Positions 35,640 through 47,426 of a stretch of DNA of 64,000 nt are shown here, piece by piece (the first letter of the stretch is position 1; the number at the start of each line of letters is the position of its first letter). The translations under genes were made by a program, and so were the position numbers. This stretch comes from a virus (taxonomy: Duplodnaviria; Heunggongvirae; Uroviricota; Caudoviricetes). The DNA lies in the IMG/VR virus record IMGVR_UViG_3300012347_000338, positions 1 to 64,000 of that record; one strand, given 5' to 3'. The notes under the pieces are model-generated. The model made no database searches and had not been told where the DNA came from. It was given only the letters and a program-made list of their open reading frames with translations.

Positions 35640-38600
35640 TTAGCGGTTCAGGTAGTCAAGCTCTTTGGTGACGCTGCCGCGGATCTCTTTTGGAGCCGTG
35701 GCGGCGATACGCTGCGCCTTGGACTGGTTCGCCTTCTGCACACGCTTGTCAATCTGCTTGGGGTCAATCTCAATCTTGCTTTGCGGGTTGTCCTTGTTCC
35801 ACTGAGCAATCTGCTCCTTGGCCTTGGCAATCTTGTCTTGGTCGCGCTCAACGCGGCCAGCGGTCCACAGGTCGGCAATCTCAGTCTCGCGCAGCTTGTT
35901 CTGACCGATCAGATTCTGTTGAGTTGAGGTGGCCTCTTGGATTTTCTTGACCGATGCGGGCTGGAAGCCGATGGCCTTGACCACGCCTTCCCATGCGTCG
36001 ACGTCAACAACCTTGCGGCCCTTCTCATCGCGGTACATGCCCATGGTCCACATGTCAGAAGCCTTGATCAGGTTCTGAGCGGCCTGTGGAGACACGGTCT
36101 TGGCTGCCTTGGCAATGTCACCTTGAGCGACTTGGCCGCCAGCGACCAGCCAGTTGGCGGCCATGCTGAATGCTGGGCCGCCGATCTCTGCGAGGTCGCG
36201 GGTGTAGCTGGACTTCTTGGTGAAGAAGCCAGTGCCGGGCACGAGGTTGCCCAAGCCCATACGGCCAGACAAGTCAATCGGCGAACCTGGGATGCTGGTG
36301 ATACCACCCATCAGGAAGTCAGCGAAGCCGTCGCCCACGAAGCCAGACAAGAACTCTTTCTTGGCCTGCTTGCTGTCGAAGGACTTGTTGAACACGCGCT
36401 GAGCGATGCCGTCAATCACGTCGTCGAGGTCATCGGCGCCAGGCATGCCGCCCAAGCCAGACACTGCGAACAGCACCAGCAAGGCCATGCCAACGGCTTT
36501 CTTGCCCTCTGGGCCATTGCCCCACATGCGCTGCAAGAACTCAACGTAGGCGATTGAGTACTGCTTGAACGTGAAGAGCGTGGCACCCACGGCGCCGCGT
36601 GCCCACGCAGGCTTGTTGCCCTTGTTGTAGACGCCTTGCGTCTCACGGATCGCGTTCTCAGCAAAGGCAAACGGGTCGGCCATCTTCTGATCGCGGGCCA
36701 CTTTGTAGGCTGCGATGAAGGTGACGCGGCGGTTGAACTGTTCGGCAGTACCGAATAGCTTGCCCCAGCCGAGAGAGATCTTGGCCAGCGTGTTGTTTGC
36801 CTTGGCCAGTGCGTCGCCAGACTTCGTGCCGTCGCCAGACTTCAAAGCACCCTTGCCTTGCGACTGGGCCATGAGCTGGTGCACCTCTTGTGGACTGACA
36901 ACGCCATCGGCTTCAGCGCGCTTGAGCGCCTTTGCCAGCTCGTCGTCGTCCTTGATGCCCTTGCTCACCAGCTTCACAGCGTCGGCCATGCGTGCAGCTG
37001 CGCCGGTAGCGCCAACAAACTGGCTGAGGTACGGCATGGTCATCGTGAACGGCTGAGTCATGTTGACGAGAGCCGATGCGATTGAGCCGCCGATGAACTG
37101 AGCGAACATCAGGCCACGGATGGCTTGCGCCTCTTCCTGTGGGTTCTGGATGTAGTTCATCAGCTTGATGGCCATGTCTTTCAGGTCACCAGACTTGACT
37201 GCTGCGGCTGCCTTGCCGATCTCGCCTGCGTGCAGGTTGGTCGAAACTTGGCGAGCGTTGGAGTACACGAAGCCGGCGAGCACGCGACCTGCGTCTTCGC
37301 TGAAACCGTCGATACCCTTACGCTGAATCAGGCGCTTCATGGCCGAGCGGTTGGACTTGGCCAGCTTCAGGTACTGCTGGTATGCCTGCGACTTCTCGTC
37401 GACACCGTTCTCCTCGAGGCCCAAGGCTTCGCCGAACAGCGCCAGCGACTCAGGCGTCACGCCAGAGAACAGCTTGTAGCTCTCCTTGGACATCGTGCCC
37501 GTGGTGACTTCAGAGTCAGGGTATTGCTCACGCATCTCGCGAGCCATCTTGTTGGCTTCCGCCTGGCTCTCAAACATGCTGAAGTACTGCTGCTCGCCGT
37601 CCTTGCCGACTACGTACACAGTGAACTCGCCGTAGCGAGACAGGGGTGCGTAGCCGCGGGCCATGAGGCCGATGGCTTGACCGACCTTCTCGGAGATCAC
37701 TTCCTTGGTGTTGGTCAGCACCTCGGCGCGTCCAGGCTGCTGCTCAATGAGCAGATCCAAGTGGGCGGAGATGATGCGCTCAGACTGCTTGACGGTCTTG
37801 GCGGCCATCACTTGGTCGCGGATCGCGTCGCCGTCTTCGCCCAAATAGCGAAGCATGTCCGACGCATTCAAGGTCGTGATTGACTGGTTCACCGCAGCAC
37901 GGAACTCGCGGTACAGAGCGATCTGGCGGTCGTCGAGCTGGAAGTAGTCGCGCAACTCTTGGTTGCTGAACACAACGCCAGCTTTTTCGACGTCGTCCTC
38001 TGGCTGCAGGTCGCCGTTCTCATCGCGAGAGAAGCTCAATGTGCCTTGGAAAATCGGGTCACGCAGGGCTGCCACGTCCTCAGCAGACATTGGCGTCTTG
38101 GCGATGTCTTTCCAGGACTCGAGCTTCGGCAGGATGTTCGGCGCTAGGTCTGCCGCCTTGTTGGCGTAGACCGACACGTCGTCAATGAAGCGCTGAACAG
38201 CGTCGAACACGCGCTTGAACTCAGGGTGCTTCTCGGCCAGGTTGTACATGGTGCCGACAGACTTGTCCCACCAAGTTACCTTCTTGCTCGAGGTGATGAA
38301 GTCGCCGACTTGGTAGCCGCTGGCCAGCTTGATGCTGTTGATGTCTTCAAACCAAGGCTTGCGTGCACGGCTGAACAAAGGCACGCCGCCGGAGACCGTC
38401 TCGCGCATCTTGTCGGTGACATCAAAGCCCAGCTGCTCGAGCGGCGAATAGCCTTGCTCCAAAGCGTGCAGTTCTTTGGTGAGAGCAGCGCGCTCCTTAC
38501 TCTCAAATGGCAGGTTGCGGATCTTGGCCGTCAATGCGATGCGCTCAATCTCTGCCGCGTTACCAGCGTCAACAGCGCCAGCCTTTTCGCCACCCAGCTT

Positions 38601-47426: not shown

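Follow-up and report, generated by a model that had tools for sequence, protein, structure and literature searches.

What kind of protein would a temperate tailed phage encode in a single gene of 11.8 kb, and what might become of that protein during infection? The question is raised by the 64,000-nucleotide stretch analysed here (the window; positions 1 to 64,000 of IMG/VR virus record IMGVR_UViG_3300012347_000338, Caudoviricetes), in which an open reading frame (ORF) on the minus strand (35640-47426) encodes a protein of 3928 amino acids (aa), called the giant below. The giant is probably a phage-type polyvalent protein that is packaged in the head of an F116/Bcep22-like temperate podophage and ejected ahead of or together with the DNA. 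It is assigned to this class because a lytic transglycosylase (SLT), an inorganic pyrophosphatase (InPase), ADP-ribosyltransferases (ARTs) of the ART-PolyVal family and a probable HExxH peptidase are found in one late-gene polypeptide. The original prediction, made from the letters of the window alone, had proposed an injected protein that digests peptidoglycan and delivers effectors into the host; catalytic folds, the virion operon, synteny and C-terminal identity to gp60 of Pseudomonas phage H66 now support this proposal, and the six features it listed are all real, most of them now being nameable.

Polyvalent proteins were described as a class by Iyer, Burroughs, Anand, de Souza and Aravind (2017, J Bacteriol; PMC5512222), who predicted their injection and their autoprocessing by metallopeptidase (MPTase) domains, and who found InPase, lysozyme and LPD38 domains to be confined to the phage-type versions. 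Members combine between two and fifteen different effector or enzymatic domains; the giant contains at least seven recognisable modules. Its setting is that of a late or virion gene, with tail fibres, an internal virion protein, an endolysin and an integrase on its flanks. Amongst the hallmark domains of the class, PF18760 (twice), PF18823 and PF01464 score above their cut-offs, accompanied by the conserved HExxH domain; the profile searches for catalytic folds that had been suggested as a check thus returned SLT, InPase and two ARTs above Pfam cut-offs. In total, five Pfam or NCBIfam domains exceed curated cut-offs, and the catalytic or family-invariant residues are kept in the SLT, the InPase, both ARTs and the HExxH domain. 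The giant shares with phage-type polyvalent proteins the gathering of many effector domains, including SLT, InPase, ART-PolyVal and HExxH, in one late-gene polypeptide, but its HExxH domain and a further domain, named module X here, are unmatched by any Pfam model from PMC5512222, and its GP88 domain has 0 mentions in that paper. The class is already described and its overall picture is unchanged by the giant; the combination of domains is new.

The features of the giant gene are as follows (window coordinates, strand, residues, description and basis).

35640..47426 (-): whole gene, predicted polyvalent virion protein of 3928 aa, stop codon included (ORF list and translation)
46932..47369 (-): aa 20-165, SLT (GH23) lytic transglycosylase, putative catalytic E38 in an E-S motif (Pfam, NCBIfam, PDB)
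45027..46874 (-): aa 185-800, Ala/Gly-rich region with hydrophobic segments 185-206 and 282-300 (composition, hydropathy)
44547..44942 (-): aa 829-960, polyvalent-type family I InPase, DGDKVD at 885-890 (Pfam PF18823, PDB)
43437..44135 (-): aa 1098-1330, conserved HExxH...E domain, probable zincin-like metallopeptidase (homologues, alignment, AlphaFold model)
42582..43394 (-): aa 1345-1615, conserved leader (WLKAPNG...RTPAFKKWFGDW) and ART-PolyVal ADP-ribosyltransferase 1, with H1408, Y1443 and D1557 (Pfam PF18760)
41967..42569 (-): aa 1620-1820, small module travelling with GP88 (co-occurrence)
41061..41966 (-): aa 1821-2122, GP88 (PF17338) domain, invariant C1870-x5-C1876-x3-C1880 (Pfam and alignment)
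40017..41054 (-): aa 2125-2470, ART-PolyVal ADP-ribosyltransferase 2, with H2165, Y2203, D2398 and a long insert (Pfam PF18760)
38352..39968 (-): aa 2487-3025, module X, enzyme-like, GNAT-like core (homologues, alignment, AlphaFold model)
35643..38339 (-): aa 3030-3928, C-terminal virion/ejection module, NCBIfam tail-700 'PLxRFG domain' (NF032893, F116-like identity)
36426..36497 (-): aa 3644-3667, strongest hydrophobic, transmembrane-like segment (Kyte-Doolittle, 19-aa window, 1.88)
35593..35618 (-): strong intrinsic terminator, 11-bp stem and T8 tail, about 20 nt past the stop codon of the giant gene

Enzymatic domains of the giant

The N-terminal domain is matched by Pfam SLT (PF01464) over aa 51-133 with an E value of 2e-15 (56.7 bits, cut-off 21.3), by NCBIfam murein transglycosylases, and by Slt chains in the PDB at 3.5e-6. 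All the motifs of the family are present, namely E38-S39, GxxQ (G59..Q62) and AYNAG (as AAYNAG), so that both the profile and the motifs place the domain in SLT/GH23, as had been proposed for aa 20-165, and a lytic activity is predicted. It is followed by the Ala/Gly-rich region (aa 185-800), for which no family match was obtained in profile searches and whose two hydrophobic Gly/Ala-rich segments (185-206 and 282-300) had gone unnoticed. This region is conserved in 31 of 149 related giants, counted, like the other co-occurrences given below, with phmmer searches from single sequences (E 1e-4), a method that overlooks distant copies, amongst 149 representative proteins that carry the HExxH domain.

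The pyrophosphatase domain, which had been said to resemble such enzymes only loosely at aa 860-960, was correctly named but is anything but a loose match: Pfam InPase (PF18823) covers aa 829-960 with an E value of 1.5e-52 and 177.5 bits against a cut-off of 26.8. The metal-binding motif of family I (D-x-D-x-x-D) reads D-G-D-K-V-D at aa 885-890. A further match, at 1e-29, is to the C-terminal domain of a portal protein of known structure (PDB 9b41_L). By its profile score and its acidic motif the domain is assigned to the family I InPases (PF18823) as a putative enzyme.

Two internally repeated modules had been noticed at about aa 1395-1610 and 2150-2460, and these are now identified as two ART-PolyVal domains (PF18760, cut-off 31.2 bits). 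The first is matched at aa 1398-1601 (E 2e-18, 67.8 bits) and the second at aa ~2160-2455 (E 5e-13, 50.3 bits). Both keep the invariant or nearly invariant positions of 59 aligned family members: H, A..Y, P, D-G and QxKSAxxNxGxF. The active site of ART-PolyVal was described as H-Y-D by Iyer et al. (PMC5512222), and H1408/Y1443/D1557 and H2165/Y2203/D2398 occupy family-conserved columns, which we infer to lie on strands 1, 2 and 5. Both copies are predicted members of the family on the grounds of profile and H-Y-D configuration.

Between the two ARTs lies a GP88 domain (PF17338, aa ~1852-2069, E 7e-23), which the original prediction had missed. Its family is characterised by an invariant Cys triad together with the motifs RLNVxSD, FYDYTK, NHHLTYSSTG and GDxxDxRxxD, a pattern that suggests a metal- or iron-sulfur-binding enzyme. 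The GP88 profile found no meaningful match in the PDB, and its family members gave no superfamily hint against Pfam at a lax threshold. The small module in front of it (aa 1620-1820), likewise unnoticed before, has no family match in Pfam and is found together with GP88 in the relatives P0147, P0148 and P0295.

The HExxH domain and module X are large families missed by current domain libraries, and neither has a Pfam model. No Pfam or NCBIfam model, MPTase-PolyVal of Pfam included, matches aa 1098-1330, while HMMER, run exhaustively against 1.84 billion representative proteins, found 512 homologues at E <= 0.001, nearly all of them located at a similar position within proteins of 2000-5200 aa. 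That the region might be an orphan was an artefact of a word-indexed search with the HELFH tile, whose 25 matches were, with the exception of a 449-aa fragment, restricted to a short part of the tile, apparently the adjacent ART leader.

The HELFH motif, earlier placed at about aa 1167 and called a zincin, stands at 1168 and is present in 149 of 149 listed representative homologues; two fold searches with the domain recovered no zincins. In an alignment of 28 sequences the only invariant residues are H1168, E1169, H1172, one downstream glutamate and one glycine, with D1218 and an FW pair nearly invariant. The glutamate lies about 45 residues past the HExxH, in the E1213/E1214 pair of an ALEEIVSDL motif. 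An AlphaFold (AF2) model built from this alignment (predicted local distance difference test score, pLDDT, 88.9; predicted template modelling score, pTM, 0.83) contains an N-terminal helix, three strands, the HExxH helix and more helices, one of which carries the conserved glutamate, an order that is also that of the zincin core described by Iyer et al. (PMC5512222). In the model, helix 65-80 contains the HExxH and helix 111-126 the glutamate, giving the helix-borne HExxH and the glutamate ligand on a later helix that characterise zincins. When the 28 members were compared singly with Pfam, weak matches to zincin families were obtained, namely to Peptidase_M78 (4 members), DUF6782 (3, best 3.9e-5), M48 (3, best 1e-3), and M91, WLM and Tox-MPTase2 (1 each), scattered amongst single-member matches to unrelated families, 47 families in all; the profile of the domain found no meaningful match amongst PDB sequences. 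From its invariant motifs and its predicted order of secondary structure, the HExxH...E domain is a probable zincin-like metallopeptidase.

Module X extends over about 540 aa, and the conserved block at aa 2640-2830 that was singled out in the original prediction (HWSEANILAHIRV...VEEVQSDW) is indeed its most conserved part and forms its core. At least 1434 homologues were found at E <= 1e-5; many are free-standing proteins (650-750 aa), and hardly any carries a Pfam annotation. Amongst 50,697 phage genome records the module occurs in only 2. Across 38 sequences 30 columns are invariant, many of them polar, and they include E2636, N2697, H2701, R2703, E2720, Q2722, S2723 and D2724, a pattern typical of an enzyme. 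The AlphaFold model (pLDDT 78, pTM 0.67) displays a GNAT-like alpha/beta core, and module X is probably an acyl- or aminoacyl-transferase-like enzyme with a GNAT-like fold. Iyer et al. (PMC5512222) report a GNAT family that typically stands beside the ART domain in polyvalent proteins of proteobacterial prophages.

The C-terminal module, the late operon and known virion proteins

The C-terminal module is matched by NF032893 at aa 3258-3915 (E 4.8e-186, 620 bits, cut-off 100) over model positions 2-680 of 681, and the name-giving PLxRFG motif reads PLSRYG at aa 3265-3270, as it does in a related metagenomic contig (L002, described below), and PLSRFG in H66. The full-model score and the motif variant identify it as a predicted PLxRFG domain protein. 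The hydrophobic C-terminal region noted before at ~3640-3670 corresponds to segment 3644-3667 inside this domain, and a weaker transmembrane-like segment is seen at aa 3436-3456 (Kyte-Doolittle). Over 875 aa the module is 47% identical to the giant protein of F116-like Pseudomonas podophages, including H66 gp60, a PLxRFG domain protein of 3787 aa whose record bears the note 'verified by mass spectrometry as part ...', a wording taken here to mean that the protein belongs to the virion. In the analysis of Hardies et al. (2016, PMC4819975) the C-terminus of H66 gp60 falls into an extended family of T7 gp16 (internal virion protein D, IVP-D) with a profile-profile E value of 8e-19, obtained with joined sets and by way of H66 gp60; according to these authors H66 gp60 resembles N4 gp50 in combining an IVP-D-like portion with a domain that must work inside the cell, and a Bcep22-like phage belongs to the same tail homology group. 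By way of this reported relationship the giant would share with N4 gp50, the virion RNA polymerase, an intracellular enzyme fused to an IVP-D-like domain; an HExxH domain is also common to both. JC1 gp69 (4515 aa), encoded at the same gene position, was found to be virion-associated with 51 unique peptides (PMC9144972).

The gene itself is an ORF exactly as first described, with an ATG start, 3928 codons and a frame unbroken over 11.8 kb, and an AGAGA Shine-Dalgarno-like motif lies about 10 nt 5' of the ATG. Downstream, past the terminator, a tyrosine integrase gene is located at 33891-35189 (-). Genes on the same strand upstream encode a virion structural protein (phrog_8003), a cupin/Asp-Arg hydroxylase, a tail-fibre protein, an internal virion protein (phrog_511), a metallophosphoesterase, an endolysin and three tail-fibre paralogues, while the plus-strand half of the window contains early genes, namely those for a DNA methyltransferase, RecT, an exonuclease, an RNA ligase and an endonuclease. 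On account of the terminator, the integrase and the virion genes on its strand, the giant gene stands at the end of a temperate tailed phage's late operon, as the original prediction had it. Head, portal and terminase genes were not found amongst the ORFs scanned, a part of those in the window, and are probably located past coordinate 64000.

The same arrangement recurs in known phages, and the comparison with giants of Bcep22-like podophages made in the original prediction proved apt. The window's 541-aa ORF matches Bcep22 gp67, an internal virion protein (33% identity), its 318-aa ORF matches gp70 (32%), and the giant takes the place of gp75 in the order gp67 ... gp70 ... giant ... terminator. 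Terminators follow H66 gp60 and Bcep22 gp75 as they follow the giant. H66 gp60 is of similar size and is also the last late-operon gene before its terminator, but its cargo is of the S-adenosylmethionine-dependent methyltransferase type with two HExxH motifs, its similarity to the giant is confined to the C-terminal domain, and it is followed by lysis genes, whereas an integrase follows the giant.

Several results weigh against the reading of the giant as an ejected carrier of effector enzymes. Module X and its homologues are without a Pfam or NCBIfam acetyltransferase match, and no conserved coenzyme A-binding motif (Q/RxxGxG/A) was seen by inspection of the module X consensus; it is for these two reasons that we speak of a GNAT-like fold and not of a member of the GNAT family. 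Comparison of the C-terminal domain with T7 gp16 by hhalign was not significant (E 0.0043, probability 8%), nor was that with a profile of 7 gp16 sequences (E 0.13), both runs aligning the same region around the hydrophobic segment, and the profile of the domain found no meaningful match in the PDB. Between the giant and Bcep22 gp75 no similarity is detectable by BLAST. The presence of the giant in the virion and its ejection are inferred from homologues alone, and the activity of its enzyme domains and the targets of its cargo are predicted.

This last point would suit a protein that is purely structural, a component of the ejectosome or internal core whose enzyme-like inserts are decayed or serve as spacers and which delivers no effectors. 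The conserved ends, lysin and C-terminal domain, resemble those of T7 gp16, which also joins an N-terminal lytic transglycosylase to a C-terminal ejection module, and the content of the cargo varies freely amongst relatives. The giant, however, exceeds gp16 threefold in length, about 2800 aa of cargo being inserted between lysin and C-terminal module; family-invariant catalytic residues are kept in every recognisable enzyme domain, and the many polar residues of module X and the HExxH domain that are invariant across distant homologues point to purifying selection on function. We therefore regard a purely structural role as unlikely.

Giants of this kind are usually labelled by automatic annotation as homologues of DarB, the DNA methyltransferase-helicase that is delivered by the virion and shields incoming DNA against type I restriction. 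PHROG 10089 ('DarB-like antirestriction') does match aa 3255-3918 (E 2.5e-77), and the syntenic giants of Bcep22 and JC1 (Lessievirus), temperate podophages of Burkholderiales, are annotated as DarB-like. The PHROG match is, however, limited to the shared C-terminal domain; no methyltransferase, superfamily 2 (SF2) helicase or LPD36 was found anywhere in the giant with Pfam and NCBIfam, so that the triad of LPD36, N6-adenine methyltransferase and SF2 helicase is lacking and with it the methylase/helicase cargo of the Lessievirus type; and the missing BLAST similarity to gp75 counts here too. The label was rejected, and an antirestriction function of this type is very improbable.

Shuffled cargo and the junction peptide

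The modules of the phage-type polyvalent protein proposed here are split and recombined amongst its relatives. In L002 (408-18643 of a 63.6-kb metagenomic contig from the ENA) these modules are divided amongst three neighbouring genes of 3031, 680 and 2195 aa: the first contains glucosaminidase, InPase, HExxH and ART domains, the second module X alone, and the third five tandem ART-PolyVal domains with a C-terminal domain 57% identical to that of the giant. A 149-aa ferritin/rubrerythrin-like gene was also seen between the 3031-aa and 680-aa genes. In another locus (L003) the region equivalent to aa 1620-2122, small module and GP88, is a stand-alone gene of 799 aa. Amongst the 149 HExxH representatives, InPase was detected in 60, ART in 60, module X in 34, SLT in 14, the same C-terminal domain in 8 and GP88 in 5, and some carry other lysins, such as glucosaminidase or GH108, instead of SLT. 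Most are themselves large, 131 of the 149 exceeding 1500 aa and most measuring 2000-5200 aa. P0158 (4095 aa) shows the same module order without GP88, and the full set (SLT, InPase, HExxH, ART, GP88, ART, module X, tail-700) is complete in none of the 149. Because modules are exchanged in this manner, the architecture is that of a conserved carrier with shuffled cargo, the carrier consisting of lysin, Ala/Gly-rich region, InPase and HExxH on its N-terminal side and of the PLxRFG domain on its C-terminal side. The exact protein is absent from the contig index, and the gene gave no megablast match in 50,697 phage records. The chromosome of Polynucleobacter sp. UK-Kesae-W10 (NZ_JACVQB010000001.1, 1161873-1170548) encodes a C-terminal domain with 70% identity to the giant's, presumably in a related prophage of a Burkholderiales host.

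The division into three genes in L002 might suggest that the ORF is an assembly or frameshift artefact fusing adjacent genes, but this is hardly credible, as the frame is unbroken for 11.8 kb, the junction peptides described next are conserved, P0158 shares the module order, 131 of the 149 relatives exceed 1500 aa, and real giants are known in H66 gp60 (3787 aa), JC1 gp69 (4515 aa) and Bcep22 gp75 (4602 aa).

A basic heptapeptide of the form [ILMV][RK][FRK]S[RA]x[RK] ('FSRxR' type) recurs at the module boundaries of the giant, at aa 1610 (RFSRKR), 2125 (KFSRKR), 2464 (RKSRKR), 2481 (EFSRFRR) and 3018 (LFSRARK). FSRxR occurs 4 times in the protein against an expectation of 0.02, a count reached in 0 of 2000 shuffles. 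In 131 related giants it was observed 33 times (2.4 +/- 1.5 expected) and the extended motif 45 times (1.9 +/- 1.5 expected), an overall enrichment of 14- to 24-fold. The contexts in these relatives are again junctions, such as '...PLFSRDRVTSTPEFKKWFG', 'RRSAARPQFFSQLQR' at the start of module X and 'DIRRSAERQTESPEFKRWFG' between tandem ARTs. The motif was also seen within L002 at 12056-18643. The DarB-type giants largely do without it: in H66 gp60 one junction-type site is found (FSRDK at 876), in Bcep22 gp75 none, other matches to the pattern lying inside domains. Iyer et al. (PMC5512222) do not describe the motif.

The five sites of the giant differ in their codons, and the motif is therefore conserved at the peptide level; for the same reason a DNA-level recombination scar is disfavoured. 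That the motif might be the N-terminal signature of once-separate genes, as two sites reading M[RK]FSRKR could imply, was considered and rejected, the listed stand-alone homologues starting otherwise. The motif could serve in processing or in docking, or could simply be the conserved tail and leader of this cassette type. A bolder proposal is that the giant is a virion-packaged polyprotein, cut at FSRxR by its own HExxH peptidase in cis or by the head protease into at least six effectors, either during maturation or after ejection. We hold this to be rather doubtful; if true, the GNAT-like module X and the Cys-triad GP88 would be new families of injected enzymes.

A mechanism can be outlined for the polyvalent protein as follows. 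By analogy with its homologues, the C-terminal 900 aa (PLxRFG/tail-700, with the transmembrane-like segments) would incorporate the protein into the virion core and, like T7 gp16, form part of a conduit across the envelope. The N-terminal SLT, with its fold and motifs in place, would cut peptidoglycan during ejection. The roughly 2800 aa between the two ends, in which folds and catalytic residues are kept, would be cargo delivered to the cytoplasm, comprising the pyrophosphatase, the two ADP-ribosyltransferases, the Cys-triad GP88 and the GNAT-like module, and might modify host proteins or nucleotides in a way that favours early infection or counters defence. The HExxH...E zincin-like peptidase might cut the chain into units, with the FSRxR junctions as possible sites. 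A topology in which the SLT is periplasmic, segments 185-300 pass through the inner membrane and the cargo is cytoplasmic fits the hydropathy profile and is offered as speculation.

Polyvalent proteins are regarded as the phage's first weapons to enter the host cytoplasm, and to our knowledge they have almost never been dissected experimentally. The giant offers a domain map with residues to mutate, its SLT and PLxRFG ends are a candidate carrier tolerating about 2800 aa of swappable cargo, and its junction peptide makes the long-standing prediction of autoprocessing testable.

Neighbouring genes

The 582-aa ORF (47457-49205, -) directly upstream of the giant gene is matched by neither Pfam nor PHROG; its position is that of Bcep22 gp74, a virion structural protein, yet BLAST detects no similarity between the two. 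Two genes for enzyme-like proteins lie within the virion-structural operon, one for a 192-aa Asp/Arg beta-hydroxylase-like cupin (50512-51090, -) and the other for a 514-aa metallophosphoesterase (54906-56450, -; phrog_20266, with a weak HNH-repeat match), and in Bcep22 these places are taken by an acetyltransferase and a PAPS reductase. Further upstream, the three consecutive tail-fibre paralogues (59483-63329, -) encode proteins of 345, 430 and 356 aa, all of phrog_4492; three or four tail-fibre genes are also carried by Bcep22-like phages. Amongst the early genes, part of a cytosine-5 DNA methyltransferase gene (4620-5756, +) shows 81% nucleotide identity to the Bcep22 methylase and 85-87% to those of several Vibrio phages. 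Amongst the matches listed, it represents the only megablast similarity to known phages in the first 25 kb of the window.

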